Shown: in pieces, positions 4,368-42,872 of the stretch
Layout: the number at the start of each line of letters is the position of its first letter
Position numbering within the stretch: position 1 is the first letter of the stretch
Assembly (NCBI GenBank): GCA_963746505.1
Contig: CAVVBN010000014.1
Location: 72,823-136,822 of the forward strand
Direction: 5' to 3'
DNA length: 64,000 nt
Source of the DNA: an uncultured delta proteobacterium
Lineage (GTDB): Bacteria > Desulfobacterota > Binatia > DP-6
Notes under the pieces: generated by a model
Seen by the model: the letters and a program-made list of their open reading frames with translations, nothing else
The model's database searches: none
What the model was told of the DNA's origin: nothing
Position numbers and translations under genes: made by a program

Positions 4368-4494
4368 GGCCGACGCCATTGGCCCGATTGCATCCACCTC
4401 GACACGATGTCACGGGGTCGTTCAGTTGATGCCGATGCCGGCGCGAGGTGGTGCCTCGGCTGGCGAACTCGACGCTCAGCGCGTAAGGGAGGGC

Positions 4495-5313
4495 ATGCCG
4501 ACGTCCGCTGACAGGACCCCGACCGGGGCTCCGTTGCTGATCGAACGCGATGGGCCGGTCGAGACGTTGGTGATCAACGACCCTCCGCGGAACCGCATGA
4601 GCCTCGCCTTCATGGACGCGCTGGAGGTGGAGGTCGCACGCGTCGCGGACGACCCCGGCGTGCGCGCCATCGTCATTCGCGGCGCAGGAATCGAACACTT
4701 CTCGGTCGGAATGGACCTGAAGCAGCTCCCGGAGGGCATCAAGCGCATGGGCGGGCTGGAGGCCCTCCTCGACCAACGCCTCCGCGTCCTCGAGGCGATC
4801 GAGAACCTCCCGAAGCCCGTCGTCGCCGTGCTGTGCGGCTACTGCCTCGGCGGCGGTCTCGAGCTGCCGCTCGCCTGCCACTTCCGCCTCGCGGCGGCCG
4901 AAGGCTGCAAGATGGGACTCCCCGAGCTGGATCTCGGCACCGTCCCAGCCTGGGGCGGGAGCGCGCGGCTCACGCGTTGTGTCGGACGCGATCACGCCCT
5001 CGACATGATCCTTCGCGCCAAGAAGATCTCGGGCCCCGAGGCGCTGCGGATCGGTCTCGTCAGCGAAGTCTGGCCGATCGACGAGCTGTTCGAGCGCGCC
5101 CACGCGCTGGCGCGGGAGCTGGCGGACATGCCGAGGATCGCCGTCGCGGGAATGCTCCGGTGCATCGTCGGCGCCGGCGAGAAGTCACTCGCGGAGAGCA
5201 TCGCCGACGAGCGCCGCGCGGTCCTGGCGACGATGGGCACGCCGGACCAGGGCGAAGGCTTTCAGGCGTTCCTCGAGAAGCGACGTCCCCGGTTCAACCA
5301 GGGAAGCCACTGA
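4495..5313 (+). CDS. Enoyl-CoA hydratase/isomerase (crotonase) family protein
   Basis: Crotonase fold motifs: VVAVLCGYCLGGGLELPLACHFRLAAA and the C-terminal FLEKRRPRF. ATG at 4495 is preceded by AAGGGAGGG. Confidence 0.85.
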   Translation: MPTSADRTPTGAPLLIERDGPVETLVINDPPRNRMSLAFMDALEVEVARVADDPGVRAIVIRGAGIEHFSVGMDLKQLPEGIKRMGGLEALLDQRLRVLEAIENLPKPVVAVLCGYCLGGGLELPLACHFRLAAAEGCKMGLPELDLGTVPAWGGSARLTRCVGRDHALDMILRAKKISGPEALRIGLVSEVWPIDELFERAHALARELADMPRIAVAGMLRCIVGAGEKSLAESIADERRAVLATMGTPDQGEGFQAFLEKRRPRFNQGSH

Positions 5314-5344
5314 GCCAGAACCAGACGACGCCCGCTCGCAGCGC

Positions 5345-6076
5345 TCAGACCGAAAGCTGCTTTGCGAGCTCGCGGAGTAGCCTTGCGCCGTCGCCGCGCC
5401 ACGACGAACCGTGCATGCACGCGAGCGTCGTGGGCTCGTGACGCGCGAGCTTTTCCATCAGCTGTGGTCCGCTCGCAGTGTGCGAGTAGTAGTCCATCGG
5501 TTTTCGGAACGCTTCGCTCGGCCCGAGGATGTCCCCCTCGGTGATGGGAACGACGTCGTGTCCGCCCTGCGTGAAGAGATCGCCTGCGAGCAGCGTCCGC
5601 GTCGTGCCTTCGAACATGAACCCGCAGTCCCAACCGTGAGGCAGATGCGGCACGTCGATCCAGTGCAGCTGCTTCATGCCGATCGACAGCGTTTCGCCGT
5701 CGCCGAGCGCCCGCGGCGCGCGGATCGCTTGGTCCGTCACGGACACCATCACGCCGACGTGGCCCTGAACCGCCGTCGCTCGCGGCGCGATGGTGAGCCA
5801 CTCGTTCAACGCACCGGATTCGTCGGACTCCCAATGGGAGAACGCAATCCACCGCAGCGTTTCAGGCGGCAGCACGGTCTTCATCGCCTCGCACACCAGC
5901 GGAAAGAGCCCGCGCGGACCCGTGTGGAACAGAAGTGGTTCGTCGTCGAGGACGAGAAACTGGTTGAACGTGAATCCGCCCGGCATGGCCGCGGGTGGCA
6001 CTGGCGTGCTGATGCGGTAGATGCGGTCTGCGATTTCGTCGATGCGTGTGCCCGTCTGGTTGTTCACGATTCCCAT
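5345..6076 (-). CDS. MBL-fold metallo-hydrolase, flavodiiron/ODP-like di-iron type
   Basis: About 243 aa with an HWESDESG (H-x-E-x-D-x) metal-site motif and MBL-fold residue spacing. ATG at 6076 has a GAGGTG RBS. Confidence 0.65.
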   Translation of the reverse strand: MGIVNNQTGTRIDEIADRIYRISTPVPPAAMPGGFTFNQFLVLDDEPLLFHTGPRGLFPLVCEAMKTVLPPETLRWIAFSHWESDESGALNEWLTIAPRATAVQGHVGVMVSVTDQAIRAPRALGDGETLSIGMKQLHWIDVPHLPHGWDCGFMFEGTTRTLLAGDLFTQGGHDVVPITEGDILGPSEAFRKPMDYYSHTASGPQLMEKLARHEPTTLACMHGSSWRGDGARLLRELAKQLSV

Positions 6077-6085
6077 GCCCACACC

Positions 6086-6517
6086 TCACCGCGGCTCGAG
6101 CACCACGACCGGGATCGGGCGCTTCGTGCGCGACTGGTAGATGGCGTACTGGCCCTGATTGACGTCATCGGCACGGGCCCAGAGTCGCGACCGCTCCTGG
6201 CCTTCGGCGATCCGGGCACGGACGGGGATGCGCTCGCGACCCACCTGTATCTCGACATTGGGTTCGGCGGTGAGGTTGTGGAACCACCCCGGGTGCTGCG
6301 GCGCGCCCCCCTTCGACGCGATCACCACGTACGCCTTCGCATCGCGCACGTAGAGCAGCGCGGCGGTGCGCGGCTCACGGGTACGCCGCCCCACGGTGCG
6401 CAGCAGCAGCATCGGCCGGCCGCCGAGGCTCGCACCGATGCGTCCATCGGTGGCCTCGTAGAGCCACTGGTGCACGGTGAGCAGTGGGCCCATGATGCCT
6501 TCTACAAGTGGGTTCAT
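6086..6517 (-). CDS. Deazaflavin (F420H2)-dependent nitroreductase-family oxidoreductase (DUF385)
   Basis: Typical DUF385 motifs: LLLRTVGRRTREPRTAALLYV, VVIASKGGAPQHPGWFHNL, PNVEIQVG. Confidence 0.7.
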   Translation of the reverse strand: MNPLVEGIMGPLLTVHQWLYEATDGRIGASLGGRPMLLLRTVGRRTREPRTAALLYVRDAKAYVVIASKGGAPQHPGWFHNLTAEPNVEIQVGRERIPVRARIAEGQERSRLWARADDVNQGQYAIYQSRTKRPIPVVVLEPR

Positions 6518-7724: not shown

Positions 7725-8855
7725 TCAGGGGGCGGCCGGCGCCGCGGTGTAGCGGACCTCGGGGAAGTCCCGCGCGAGGTCGCGTGCGAGGTACGTCGCG
7801 GCGGCGCGGCGCACCGCCGGGTCGGGCGCCATGTGGCTGTCGAAGAACGCTGCGACCGCCAGCTTCGTGATCGTCTGCTGCCGCGCGGGGTCGAGCGCTC
7901 GGAGCGGTGGCATGCGCGCGCACGGACGCGGCAGGGAGGCCGGGACGCGCACATCGTCCTCCGGGCGGACGAGCGCTGCAATCTCCTCGTCGAGGTGGTC
8001 GCGGTCGAGGACGCGGAGCAACCACCAGCAGGCGAGGCGGTCCGGGTTGTCGAGGATGCGCAGGACGCCGCCGGTCGAATCGTCGAAGCCGGCGTGCGAG
8101 GCACCACCGATGGCGACGAGCTCCCCGTCAGGGACGCGCTGGACGGCGAGCGGCGCATTCGACGTATAGTCGATCACGACGTCGGCATCTCCGGCGATCA
8201 TCAGGAAGGGGACGGACGCGCCGGCGAAGAACGCGGGCTCGAAGAACGTCATCGGCCCCGCGATCGACACGGCTGCGGCGATGCGCGGGTCGCGCAGACG
8301 CGGGTGGAAGGCGTCGAGGGTCGCAGTCAGTCCGCCGAGAGACAACCCGACGACCCCGATCCGCTCGGGATCGATCGTGCCGGGAAACAGCGCATCGGCC
8401 TCGTCGCCAGCGAGCATCCGGTCGACGAGGAAGTGGAGATCGGCTGGTTGATTGAGGACGTCGCCGACGCGCGGGCCGCCAGTCGCCCAGCGACGGGTCA
8501 ACGGATGGTCCGGCGCCACGACCACGTATCCGCGGCTCGCCAGGTGCTCGGCCAGGTAGGTCCCGCCGCTGCGCGTGGCGAGGAATCCGTGACTGTAGAG
8601 GACGACGGGCCGCGGGCCCATAGCGCCGACCGGGAACCACGTCGTGGTCTCGAGCATGCGCGGCGATCGCCAGCGATCTCCGCTGCGGGCATCGTTGGGC
8701 CGAGACCGGTCGATGAAGGTGTGGTCCCGGCGCTCGACCCGGAACGGTCCGGGAGCAAGAAGAAGGGCGCTCGGCGACCCCGGCGGTGGCGGCACCGGCG
8801 GGGCGACGAGAGCGCACGCCGAGGTGAGGGCGAGCAGCGCGATCCACCACGGCAC
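7725..8855 (-). CDS. Alpha/beta hydrolase (PAF-acetylhydrolase/dienelactone hydrolase-like) lipoprotein
   Basis: Signal/lipobox LALTSAC and a nucleophile elbow GLSLGG with alpha/beta-hydrolase spacing. GTG start at 8855. Confidence 0.75.
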   Translation of the reverse strand: MPWWIALLALTSACALVAPPVPPPPGSPSALLLAPGPFRVERRDHTFIDRSRPNDARSGDRWRSPRMLETTTWFPVGAMGPRPVVLYSHGFLATRSGGTYLAEHLASRGYVVVAPDHPLTRRWATGGPRVGDVLNQPADLHFLVDRMLAGDEADALFPGTIDPERIGVVGLSLGGLTATLDAFHPRLRDPRIAAAVSIAGPMTFFEPAFFAGASVPFLMIAGDADVVIDYTSNAPLAVQRVPDGELVAIGGASHAGFDDSTGGVLRILDNPDRLACWWLLRVLDRDHLDEEIAALVRPEDDVRVPASLPRPCARMPPLRALDPARQQTITKLAVAAFFDSHMAPDPAVRRAAATYLARDLARDFPEVRYTAAPAAP

Positions 8856-11203: not shown

Positions 11204-11725
11204 ATGAAGCGAACATGCGCAGTCCTGGGTACGGCATTCGTCACGGCCATCACCGCCCTGGCAGCCCCGGCCTCCAACGACATCGACAAGTTCTTCCGCG
11301 TGGATGCACAGGTCTGCACGGGTGGGCAGCCGACGCGCGAGCAGCTAGCGGCACTGAAGGCGGAAGGTATTCGCGGCATCATCAACCTGCGCGAACCGGA
11401 GGAGCACAGCATCGCGGACGAGGCGGCGGTCGCGAAGACCCTGGACCTTCAATACATCAGCATCCCGGTCAAGACGGCCGCCCCGAGGGACGAGCAGGTC
11501 GAAGCCTTCCTCAAGGCGACCAGCGATCCGAATGTCTTCCCGCTCTTCATCCACTGCGCCTCGGGGAACCGCGTCGGGGCGTTCTGAATGATTCGCCGCG
11601 TCCTGGTGGACGGGTGGACGCCGGAGCGAGCCGAGGAGGAGGCGAGGCAAATCGGCATGAGGAGTCCCAACCTCCTCGACTTTGCGCTCGACTACATCCG
11701 CCGACACCCGAGGAAGGAGCCGTGA
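11204..11725 (+). CDS. DUF442/TIGR01244-like putative phosphatase, interrupted by an in-frame TGA at 11585-11587 (pseudogene or recoding candidate)
   Basis: Signal peptide and an HCASGNRVGAF CX5R-type motif. The ORF stops at TGA 11585-11587, but the next codon onward in the same frame (MIRRVLVDGWTPERAEEEARQIGMRSPNLLDFALDYIRRHP, to 11725) reads like the family C-terminus. Confidence 0.55.
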
Positions 11726-16117: not shown

Positions 16118-16402
16118 TTACTGCACGCCGTAGCCACGGCCGGACATGCACGCGCTGAATATCTGTGCCCAGCTGTCGCTCGACGTGGCGTTCGCCGACG
16201 CGGTGTTCTGGCACTGACCCGTGTCCCTGTTCTGCTGCGCCTGGCTCTGCCGGCGCTGCGGATAGACGGTGAGCGCCCGTGGTGGGGGCGCCGGGAGCGG
16301 GGCCGGGGCCGGCTGCGCGCAGCCTGCCGCAGCGACGAGGCTGGCGATGAGCACGGCGGCCGCGCCGGATACCGACAAGGAACGGGGAAACAGAGTTCGC
16401 AT
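16118..16402 (-). CDS. Small lipoprotein (hypothetical)
   Basis: Signal peptide with lipobox LVAAAGC. 94 aa, Gln/Ser-rich. Confidence 0.5.
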   Translation of the reverse strand: MRTLFPRSLSVSGAAAVLIASLVAAAGCAQPAPAPLPAPPPRALTVYPQRRQSQAQQNRDTGQCQNTASANATSSDSWAQIFSACMSGRGYGVQ

Positions 16403-16484
16403 CTGGTCTGGGCCCTCCCGCGTCGCCGCTAGCATGGTCCTCTCGACCGAGCCAGCCGTCCCGACCCCGCCGAACGCCCCAATC

Positions 16485-17277
16485 TCATCGCAGGGGACGC
16501 GGGAGCGCGCCGACGGCGGCGAGTATCTCGGTGGGAAGGGGGCGGACGCGGAAGTTGGAGGTGACGTGGGTCCAGCGGACGACGCCGTCGGCGTCGATCA
16601 GCACGGATGCCGAGAGCGCGATGTCCCGACCCTCATGTCCGCCCGTGTGCCTCAGGCCGTAGGCATCGATCGTGCCGAGGTCGGGATCGGAGAGGATCGG
16701 GAACTCGAGCCCGGCGTCGCGCGACAGCTCGGCGTTGGTCTCGACCGGATCGACAACCATCCCGACGACGCGACATCTCAGGCGTCGGAATTCGCTCATG
16801 CTCAGCTGCAGACCCTGCAGCTCCGACACGCAGAAGGGTCACCAGTGGCCACGGTAGAAGACCAGCAGGACGGGTGCGCCGCGCAGGTCGGCAAGCCGCA
16901 CGGCCCTGCCCTTCTGGTCGAGCAGCGCGAAGTCGGGCGCCAGTGCTCCGATCGCCGGGCCGGAGGCGCGCGGGACGACGGGAACGACGTAGAGCATCGT
17001 GGCGAACAAGACGGCGAGCGCGACGTCAGCACCCAGCAGCACCTTCGCCGTCCGACCACCCGGCTCCCGGCGGACCGCGACGATCGCCAGTGCTACCCCG
17101 GCGGCGACGAGGATCCAGTTCGGCACCGCGTCGTTGCGCACCCATGGCAGCCACGACGCCAGGCGGAAGACGACGACGAAGTAGCCGACGATGCCGGCGA
17201 GAACCAGCAACAGGCCGGTGAACGCGAGGCCGCGTCCCCCGCGCGGATGGCTCACGGCGGCGGCCTCGGTCGACATG
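16485..17277 (-). CDS. Membrane-anchored TlpA/peroxiredoxin-like thiol-disulfide oxidoreductase, selenoprotein candidate (Sec encoded by TGA at 16841-16839)
   Basis: Two same-frame ORFs (17378-16839 and 16829-16485) are separated only by TGA. Read through, they give ...LLVFYRGHW-U-PFCVSELQ..., a thioredoxin-fold W-C-x-x-C motif with the first Cys replaced by UGA. Two N-terminal TM helices and a redoxin fold follow (FPILSDPDLGTIDAYGL). Confidence 0.7.
16804..16822 (-). promoter_or_regulatory. Bacterial SECIS-like hairpin downstream of the UGA
   Basis: mRNA AGCUGCAG-GGU-CUGCAGCU gives a perfect 8-bp stem with a GGU apical loop. The stem starts 18 nt 3' of the UGA, with the loop at about +25, inside the bSECIS distance window. 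Confidence 0.55.
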
Positions 17278-19555: not shown

Positions 19556-20189
19556 TCAGGAATCGACCATGCGCATCACATCCATCGCCGTTCCGTCGGG
19601 GGCGGGAACCTCGGTGACGCGCTCGTCGACGTCGTCGTACTCGAGGCGCAGCGCCCGGCAGATCGTGGCGTGCATCTCGTACAGGGTGGTGACGTAGGTG
19701 AGCTCGAGGATCTGCTCGTCGTCGAGGTGGCTCTTGAGGGCGACGAAGACGCCGTCGGGCGTGCGACCGCCGTCGAGGACCAGGCAGTCGGTGTAGGCGA
19801 GCACGGCACGTTCGGCCGGCGTGAACACGTCGGCGGTCTGCCAATGGGGAACGGCCGCGATCCGCCCGTCGTCGATCCCGACCGCGCGCGCCGCCTTGCA
19901 GTGCTGCGAGAACACGAACCGCGAGCCGCGCGCCCAGCCGGCCCGCAGCTGCCCCAGCTCGCGCAGCTTCGGATCGAGCTTGCGATCGGCGCTCCGGTAG
20001 AGCTGGAAGCCGAGCACCGCGTGGCGAAAGCAGTCCGGCGACAGCGCGAAGACCGTCCACCAGTTGCCCGGCGACCCGGTGTCCGTCCCGGGCTCGCGCA
20101 CCGGATCCCGGTCACCGAACAACATCTGGTAGATCTGACGAACGAAGGGATCCGCCTCGTCGCGAGGCACCTCACGTAGCCGCGGCATC
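19556..20189 (-). CDS. Carboxymuconolactone decarboxylase (AhpD-like) family protein
   Basis: CMD-domain pattern with FSQHCKAARAVG (a Cys-x3-His-like motif). Confidence 0.7.
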
Positions 20190-20397
20190 GCCCGTGTGTA
20201 GACCACCCGGTCCGCGCAGGCCAGCGGCCGCAGTGACACGGGTGTCTGCCTGCCGATGGTCTGCGATACCCGATCGAACCGCTGGGGACAGTCGGGCCAC
20301 ACTCACAGAGCGGTGGCTGGGAGAGGCTCGGGACGCGTGCGCTCCCCGCGAGCGGCTCGTCGTCCGGCTCGGCGAAGCGCACGCGTCCGAGGTTGTG

Positions 20398-32673: not shown

Positions 32674-32976
32674 GGTCGGTTCCTCCTCGCAGACGCGGAC
32701 CGGAGGATGGATGCTCCTCCTGTGGCTACTCGCATAAGCCAACGCGGGGATGCAGGACAAGTCCTCTGTTCAGAGGAATTGTCCCCGATTCCCGCCCCCA
32801 TATCAGACCCTGGCCCGGCCCCCTTCCCACCGTTCGCCGGCTTGCGCGGGCAGAAGCCTCGCCCCTTGCAGCTGAACGGGACGCGCCGCTCGACGGCGTA
32901 GTCGCTGCAGTGTACGCCGCCCAAGAGCAGGCATCCGTCCCTACGGCCATGTGGCCATCACCGGTCCCCTAAAGCG

Positions 32977-33002
32977 GCCCGGAGGGAATCGAACCCCCGA
33001 CC
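32977..33002 (-). repeat. 26-bp tRNA-like (T-arm plus 3' acceptor) element, copy 1
   Basis: Minus strand reads GGTCGGGGGTTCGATTCCCTCCGGGC. It is identical to 56100-56125. No complete cloverleaf could be folded from the flanks. Confidence 0.6.
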
Positions 33003-33077
33003 CTCAGGCTCGACGCCTTGCGAGAGCATCGCCGTCGCAGCCCCGGTGCCACGCGAGCGTCGCCAAGACGTGCCGGC

Positions 33078-41837: not shown

Positions 41838-42872
41838 ATGAGGAAGTCCAGAATGACTCGCTCTCGTAGAGTATTCGTCGCTCGCTTGACGGTTCTGCTG
41901 GCGCTGGCTGCCAATGAGGTGCCAACTTGGGCGTCCCCGAGTATGGCGACCGGCACGCCGGCCGCGATTGGGCGAAGCGGGCGTACCCAAGTCTACCTGC
42001 TCGGATCCCAGGGTGGGCAGCAGCGGACGCTGCTCACCGGCGCCAACATCCGCGGCGGTCCCTCGGCCCTGATCGTCGTGGACGGGGTCGGCTACATGCT
42101 GGACGCCGGCGTTGGCGCACTCTTGCGACTCAACGAGGCCGGCTTCGACGCCAACGTCGTCCGCCACATCTTCGTGACCCACCACCATCAGGACCACAAC
42201 GCGGATCTCGGCAGCATGATCGGCTTCAGCTGGACGGCGGGGCGTTGGGGCAGCGCCGACCGCAGGCTCGACGTCTGGGGCCCGCCCGGGACCAAGGCCT
42301 ACATCCGCGGCTACAAGATCTCGACCGCACGGAACATCGCCGACCAGGAGGGCCCGTTGGTCCAGAAGCCCACCCTCGACGCGTACGTGCACGGCCACGA
42401 GCTGTCGATGCAGGGTGGGGTTCGCACCGCCGGTGTCCGGGTCATGAGCGACGAGCGAATGACCGTGAGCACGATTCGGGTCAACCATGGGTCGCTTCCA
42501 TCGGTCGCCTACCGCTTCGAGACGCCGGATCTCACGGTCGTCTTCAGCGGTGACCGCGGCGATCGCGGCGACGGGCTGGCTGGGTTCGCCAGAGGTGCCG
42601 ACATCCTCTTCCACGAGATCAGTGATCTCGACGTCGTGAGGGCAGCTCTCGCGGCGCAGGGAGCGCCGCAACGCTACGTCGATCACCAGATCCACGATCA
42701 CTCCGGCGGCGAGCTCGTCGGGCGAACGGCGACTGAAGCGGGCGTCCCCAAGCTCGTGCTCTACCACTTGGTCCCCGGCACTGCCGCACTCAGCGACGAG
42801 CGGTGGCGCTCGCTGGTCTCCCCCTACTACGCGGGCGAAATCCTCGTCGGGAAGGATCTGTCCGAGTTCTAG
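41838..42872 (+). CDS. Secreted MBL-fold metallo-hydrolase
   Basis: Signal peptide. VTHHHQDH motif and downstream His/Asp metal ligands. Confidence 0.75.
   Translation: MRKSRMTRSRRVFVARLTVLLALAANEVPTWASPSMATGTPAAIGRSGRTQVYLLGSQGGQQRTLLTGANIRGGPSALIVVDGVGYMLDAGVGALLRLNEAGFDANVVRHIFVTHHHQDHNADLGSMIGFSWTAGRWGSADRRLDVWGPPGTKAYIRGYKISTARNIADQEGPLVQKPTLDAYVHGHELSMQGGVRTAGVRVMSDERMTVSTIRVNHGSLPSVAYRFETPDLTVVFSGDRGDRGDGLAGFARGADILFHEISDLDVVRAALAAQGAPQRYVDHQIHDHSGGELVGRTATEAGVPKLVLYHLVPGTAALSDERWRSLVSPYYAGEILVGKDLSEF

Follow-up and report, generated by a model that had tools for sequence, protein, structure and literature searches.

The selenoprotein class nearest to the gene described here is not a new one: it was described in 2004-2005 and has been known for about twenty years. 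By 2005 the 'Prx-like protein' family already counted as known: the Sargasso Sea study of that year lists it as such and defines it by UxxC in place of the TxxC or TxxU of peroxiredoxins (Prx) (PMC1088965). In the GOS data, 'Prx-like 1 (pfam00578, UxxC)' comprises 225 selenoprotein sequences (PMC2398784), and a 2026 review lists the 'Prx-like thiol:disulfide oxidoreductase, PF00578, UxxC/UxxU' among high-confidence predictions (PMC13188914).

We analysed a 64-kb stretch of DNA from an uncultured member of the Binatia (the whole of which is referred to as the window). A gene on its minus strand, at 16485-17276, shares with the Prx-like 1 class (reference WP_010940744.1) the PF00578 domain, the UxxC motif, the occurrence of Cys homologues and a bacterial SECIS (bSECIS) element just past the UGA (PMC1088965, PMC2398784, PMC13188914). 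Judged by the stated criteria of that class, the gene fits as a member of this long-known group of Prx-like UxxC thiol:disulfide oxidoreductases, with PF00578, U146-P-F-C149 and a conserved TGA with Cys homologues. We consider it very probable that the locus is one gene, encoding a 263-residue Prx-like thiol:disulfide oxidoreductase that is membrane-anchored and extracytoplasmic and has the motif U146-P-F-C149, with UGA read as selenocysteine (Sec) by means of a SECIS element. The preliminary description of this DNA had proposed a selenoprotein candidate here, and that call proves essentially right in view of the conservation of the TGA, the domain that runs across it and the family-level evidence on the hairpin.

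Whereas Prx-like 1 was first described from Geobacter and marine sequences, the clade containing the present gene comes from Binatia, Planctomycetota, Acidobacteriota and others. It differs from Prx-like 1 in its three-helix transmembrane (TM) anchor, replaced by a signal peptide or lipobox in Gemmatimonadota, and in an invariant R-G-H-W-U. There seems to be about an even chance that these sequences form a distinct R-G-H-W-U-x-x-C clade, extracytoplasmic, anchored and in nearly every case Sec-containing, with a Gly imposed by the SECIS loop, and that they give the first sequence evidence of Sec decoding in Binatia. So defined, the clade has no curated model covering it, occurs in at least 589 species-representative genomes from six or more soil and sediment phyla, and has Sec in 77 of 80 gene copies; it would be at most a subfamily without a curated model and with a membrane anchor. 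Our literature search found nothing on selenocysteine in Binatia or on a TM-anchored Prx-like selenoprotein, which is weak evidence of novelty. The gene leaves the general understanding of selenoproteins unchanged.

One reading frame across an internal TGA

The gene is complete on the minus strand, with 263 codons including Sec146 and a terminal TGA stop at 16487-16485. Its ATG lies at 17276-17274, so that the end at 17277 given previously was one base too far. As the preliminary description had reported, two minus-strand ORFs in one frame are separated by a single TGA at 16841-16839; the frame from the ATG continues unshifted beyond this codon to the terminal stop, and GC3 is 0.85, a coding-type value, in both halves. 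The junction reads ...LLVFYRGHW-TGA-PFCVSELQGLQL..., giving ...LLVFYRGHW-U-PFCVSELQ... in the protein, with U146 as the first residue of the U-P-F-C redox motif and the codon for Cys149, the resolving Cys of UxxC, at 16830-16832. When Cys was put at the TGA, the joined 263-aa product matched the AhpC/TSA family (Pfam PF00578) with 99.5 bits against a cutoff of 26 (E 1.7e-28). This thioredoxin-fold, Prx-like redox domain (residues 109-235, 16572-16952) covers profile positions 1-123 of 124, and the match spans the internal TGA.

In public databases the gene exists as two ORFs of 145 and 114 aa, and the TGA could in principle be a true stop, leaving a 145-aa membrane protein that ends in HW and a separate 114-aa C-terminal fragment initiated at GTG 16829. 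Gene callers do annotate two ORFs, and this GTG, 9 nt past the TGA, is available as a start for the shorter piece. Such a stop would, however, cut one thioredoxin-fold domain at its active site, and together with the homologue and hairpin data given below this makes termination at the TGA highly improbable. TGA is the usual stop in the window (25 of 34 long ORFs), and the genetic code is therefore not reassigned. Other same-frame ORF junctions, at 42872, 46730 and 60875, were considered as similar cases and proved to be ordinary gene ends.

Upstream of the redox domain, hydropathy predicts an N-terminal membrane anchor (16980-17228) of three TM helices, at about residues 17-37, 50-68 and 79-99, rather than the two helices proposed previously. 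The loop with the most positive charge is the one between TM2 and TM3. From hydropathy and charge distribution, an N-in/C-out topology is predicted, in which the three helices would anchor the protein with its redox domain outside the cytoplasm. The signal peptide or lipobox that Gemmatimonadota members carry in place of the TM anchor is consistent with an extracytoplasmic redox domain. Pfam holds no family for the three-TM region.

The solved structures nearest by sequence are the Prx-like BCP 2ywn, M. tuberculosis AhpE 1xvw and ResA. The protein shares its fold with canonical peroxiredoxins (BCP/PrxQ, AhpE) and with PrxU, among which its best solved-structure matches are found, and its second Cys occupies the position of their peroxidatic Cys (Cp). 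In alignments to 1xvw and 2ywn, U146 falls on the Thr of PxxxTxxC and C149 on Cp. The Sec thus stands three residues earlier than that of PrxU, which is at Cp itself (TxxU). UGA had been placed at the catalytic Cys with the resolving Cys intact; this holds relative to CxxC homologues, whereas relative to peroxiredoxins the Sec is at the Thr and C149 at the peroxidatic Cys.

In place of PxxxTxxC the present protein has R-G-H-W-U-P-F-C. Across the 80 family members described below, the Prx Pro column is always Arg and the Thr column always Sec or Cys. The column of the catalytic (distal) Arg holds Pro in 70, Ser in 9 (including the window protein) and Ala in 1, and an Arg one position earlier occurs in 26 of 80. 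Because the catalytic Pro, Thr and Arg are all replaced, the protein is not a canonical peroxidase. We take the Pro at the catalytic-Arg column to resemble the cis-Pro that faces the CxxC site of thioredoxin-fold oxidoreductases.

TlpA, ResA and DsbE (CcmG) likewise carry W-[C/U]-x-x-C on a membrane-tethered thioredoxin fold outside the cytoplasm, and by analogy the chemistry is likely the same. The U146 selenolate would be the likely nucleophile on an oxidised substrate, and C149 would resolve the intermediate to give an intramolecular selenosulfide, as in CxxC thioredoxin-fold reductases. Those proteins differ in having one TM helix against three here, and the present gene family shows no genomic link to ccdA/dsbD or to genes for cytochrome c maturation. 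The joined product also resembles the SelL-related family NF040769 and eukaryotic selenoprotein L, which combine a Prx-like fold and a Sec-containing CxxC-type motif. NF040769 is among the best-scoring curated selenoprotein models, but it stays below its cutoff of 120 (the window protein reaches 55.5 bits, other members 38-71) and matches over the first 100 profile positions only.

The remaining NCBIfam models also scored below cutoff: BCP 57 against 140, PrxQ 41 against 260, PrxU 37 against 270, ResA 47 against 170, TlpA 19 against 230 and DsbE 16 against 359. The proposal of a membrane-anchored TlpA/peroxiredoxin-like redoxin can be kept as far as the anchor and the Prx-like domain are concerned, while the model scores point to AhpC/TSA instead of TlpA/ResA. 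What public databases store for the gene and hundreds of homologues is a pair of truncated 'hypothetical' ORFs (about 145 and 114 aa), and this gives the present reading its value for annotation. Since no curated NCBIfam model reaches its cutoff, automated pipelines will go on splitting the gene.

Conservation of the UGA codon

Homologues were collected by scanning species-representative genomes with the peptide pattern [LI]VFYRGHW, which gave at least 589 relatives. The best 79 loci, with 80 gene copies, were analysed; they come from Binatia, Planctomycetota, Acidobacteriota, Myxococcota, Gemmatimonadota and Verrucomicrobiota MAGs, and thus from at least six phyla. The species of the window is not among these genomes, and its best match in the collection has 79% protein identity and 83% nucleotide identity. 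At the UGA column the codon is TGA in 77 of the 80 copies and TGC in three (loci L036, L055 and L077), and neither TAA nor TAG occurs, which argues against the position being a stop. The codon is always followed directly by x-x-Cys, with the residue equivalent to Cys149 being Cys in 80/80 family members.

The downstream ORF is always in frame, with a median of 116 codons and a very narrow range of lengths. For close relatives, Ka/Ks comes to 0.39 before the UGA and 0.34 after it, and on this measure the downstream stretch of about 116 aa is under purifying selection. In a protein search, some 60 clusters of 50-81% identity and 144-146 aa cover the N-terminal 55% of the query only, and each one examined ends ...VFYRG(H/F)W, a shared end point that favours the selenoprotein reading. 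At the nucleotide level the homologues do not end at the TGA, an outcome that would have spoken against that reading; all run on in frame for about 116 aa.

Cys-codon homologues are continuous across the site, which again argues against a true stop. Metagenomes add to the three TGC loci a further 53 intact CxxC forms whose Cys occupies precisely the UGA column, and the expectation that UGA would align with the first Cys of CxxC in homologues is borne out. Two rare variants on metagenome contigs (P0002 and P0003) also read through the site: one has HWGPFC, with Gly for Sec, and in the other the UPFC segment is deleted to give HW-T-VSELQ. Both may be errors or inactivated copies.

A pseudogene or a sequencing or assembly error, in which a Cys TGC or TGT was mutated or misread to TGA in the present genome only, would need no more than a single-base change. 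The window in fact holds such a case. A PTP/DUF442-type phosphatase gene (11285-11722, plus strand; HCASGNR P-loop) has an in-frame TGA at 11585-11587, five residues past the P-loop Arg, where Trp (GAFWMIRRV) stands in every close homologue, each of full length (about 172-176 aa). We rejected it as a second selenoprotein, the TGA being a private TGG to TGA nonsense change or a base error. This gene illustrates what a private defect looks like, and the redoxin gene is quite unlike it. The TGA of the redoxin gene stands at the same column in 77/80 homologues from several phyla, assemblies from two other sequencing runs show the same 145 + 114 aa split, and the downstream part is under selection as noted above. 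The conservation of the TGA effectively refutes a local error or pseudogene, which we regard as extremely improbable.

The gene occurs twice in one Binatia MAG (L004), the TGA of the second copy (18111) lying about 7.7 kb from that of the first (10433). With PLQV for PFCV, the second copy is without the resolving Cys, and some 20 codons further on its reading frame breaks down. Although the TGA and hairpin are still there, this copy appears to be a duplicate in decay.

The SECIS-type hairpin

Four constraints have been published for bSECIS elements: an apical loop of 3-9 nt on a stem of 4-16 bp; a UGA 16-37 nt away; a loop that opens with two G residues and continues with G/U; and a minimum free energy (MFE) of -7.5 kcal/mol or lower (PMC13188914). 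We implemented these four constraints, with the energy cutoff applied strictly and to the stem-loop alone. Within the coding sequence of the present gene, a bacterial SECIS-type hairpin lies at 16804-16822 on the minus strand, with an 8-bp stem AGCUGCAG/CUGCAGCU formed by a 5' arm (16822-16815) and a 3' arm (16811-16804) around the loop GGU (16814-16812). The perfect 8-bp stem and GGU loop noticed earlier are thus present, although the stem begins 16 nt after the A of the UGA and not 18 nt. The bacterial SECIS geometry claimed for it is also seen: the hairpin lies within all four constraints, with its GGU loop, 8-bp stem, UGA-to-loop spacing of 24 nt and energy of -11.4 kcal/mol.

Taken alone, this hairpin is weak evidence, and its significance comes from family-level comparisons; we give no weight to its stability by itself. 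A single-sequence fold of the 81-nt region is no better than shuffles (z = -0.76). Synonymous-codon shuffling gave a mean z of -0.9, and in the window gene the hairpin was not significantly stronger than peptide and codon bias would produce (p ~0.1-0.26), because ELQGLQL written with preferred codons is nearly self-complementary. The genes of the family are GC-rich, and a stem of equal length is found at about 12% of their other positions.

Across the family, a hairpin within the bSECIS constraints was found in 50 of 78 Sec forms (64%), whereas 6.0% of the 19,635 codon positions taken as controls from those genes had one. The strict stem-only energy cutoff is missed by about a third of Sec forms. 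The 61 Cys-codon members (58 from metagenomes plus the three genome loci) gave such a hairpin in two cases (3%), against 49/77 Sec forms (p 1e-14), and with GC-matched, intact genes only the figures were 2/23 and 38/58 (p 3e-6), both p-values overstating independence because the family sequences are phylogenetically related. The GG of the loop is contributed by a Gly codon found in 70/76 Sec forms (92%) and in 9/53 Cys forms (17%). Being common in Sec forms and rare in Cys forms, the hairpin and the loop Gly go with the UGA and not with the protein fold. This specificity for TGA forms would not be expected of a true stop, and the comparison of Sec with Cys forms gives a clear picture of an RNA element constraining its encoded protein.

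The peptides encoded at the hairpin differ by lineage (ELQGLQ, ELRGLG, QLGEL), yet a stem of 6-9 bp is formed each time. Seven stem pairs, in three register groups, show double-sided compensatory changes, some of them paired synonymous changes such as CAG/CUG to CAA/UUG. Stem positions are paired in 78-92% of cases in register and in 4-49% in slid registers, percentages that are partly circular, as register was the basis for choosing the groups; no such circularity affects the compensatory changes. A covariance model built from Planctomycetota-type hairpins only placed 16798-16829 (minus strand) at the top of the whole window on both strands, with 15.6 bits and E ~0.03, a cross-phylum score that comes partly from shared coding ancestry. 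Rfam, searched permissively over the hairpin and at the gathering threshold over the window, returned nothing relevant, an outcome that carries no information because no general bacterial SECIS model is apparent in it. The one mir-143 match (11.5 bits) was dismissed as chance.

The family hairpins have a loop of GGU, GGUC, GGC or GGG located 17-30 nt after the UGA. Their small G-rich loop (GGU, GGUC), their 6-9 bp stem and their place within the coding region at this distance are shared with the E. coli fdhF SECIS and the bSECISearch consensus. We take the fdhF apical hairpin to be UGCA-GGUC-UGCA, where SelB contacts G and U of the loop, and thus to be very close to CUGCA-GGGUC-UGCAG of the present gene; the fdhF loop is presumably about 6 nt nearer to its UGA. 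In contrast to fdhF and the bacterial consensus, no bulged U is evident in the present candidate. The hairpin of the present gene, 16-34 nt past UGA146, very probably acts as a bacterial SECIS during translation, and from the known mechanism it would be presumed to recruit SelB-GTP-Sec-tRNA(Sec), so that Sec is inserted and termination does not occur.

Sec machinery and genomic context

None of selA, selB, selC and selD was found in the 64-kb window by ARAGORN, Rfam or SelD and SelB probes, and tRNA-Sec was found neither in the window nor in 60 locus flanks. ARAGORN did call an 80-nt tRNA-Ala (CGC) at 32973-33052 on the minus strand, with an oddly placed anticodon; this is probably a false positive, as Rfam at its gathering threshold gave no tRNA in the window. 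Loss of the Sec trait is frequent in the evolution of bacteria (PMC1794560). These two points, machinery not found within the window and a trait commonly lost, leave some room for a true Sec family whose UGA is not read as Sec in this genome, either as a relic after loss of the machinery or with low-level read-through as Cys or Trp. A relic should show decay of the kind seen in the second L004 copy, whereas here the UGA, the xxC, the perfect 8-bp hairpin and the intact downstream frame have all been kept, with Ka/Ks of 0.2-0.4 against close relatives. We therefore consider it improbable that the UGA is not decoded here, and retain Sec insertion as the preferred reading.

Applied to the locus flanks, the SelD and SelB probes gave one match only, in an Acidobacteriota MAG (L026), which was then confirmed by curated models. 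In this single case of adjacency, selD (4462-5511, minus strand) directly adjoins the redoxin homologue (5580-6374, plus strand) in divergent orientation. This selD scores 369 bits with TIGR00476 (cutoff 125) and itself contains a UGA in frame at the catalytic site, RLTSYAACAG-U-ASK. It lends indirect support to Sec decoding. For the Binatia, Planctomycetota, Acidobacteriota and Gemmatimonadota, all poorly studied, the family implies Sec decoding and adds a membrane-tethered, probably periplasmic Sec enzyme.

Gene context differs even among related genomes. The region 16500-17240 has 75-83% nucleotide identity to the Binatia homologues L001-L004. BLASTN of the 10-kb flanks on each side against the same four loci gave no similarity except an unrelated short match of 67% between L004 and window positions 8259-8605. 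A search for conserved neighbours returned no family shared by more than 9 of the 80 loci, none that is a ccm, res or ccdA gene, and no partner gene.

Two neighbours in the window may be mentioned. A known class of selenoproteins is AhpD-like, and members have been reported to be encoded beside Prx-like genes. A CMD/AhpD-like gene lies at 19556-20302 (minus strand), about 2.3 kb upstream of the redoxin gene and past a glyoxalase gene and a divergent metallophosphoesterase gene; it was rejected as a selenoprotein, having no CxxC/CxxU motif and no in-frame TGA. On the other side, 50 nt past the end of the selenoprotein gene, lies a 105-aa ORF (16118-16435, likewise on the minus strand) that has no Pfam match and is not conserved beside homologues; its product has several Cys residues and a lipoprotein-like signal (…LVAAAGC).
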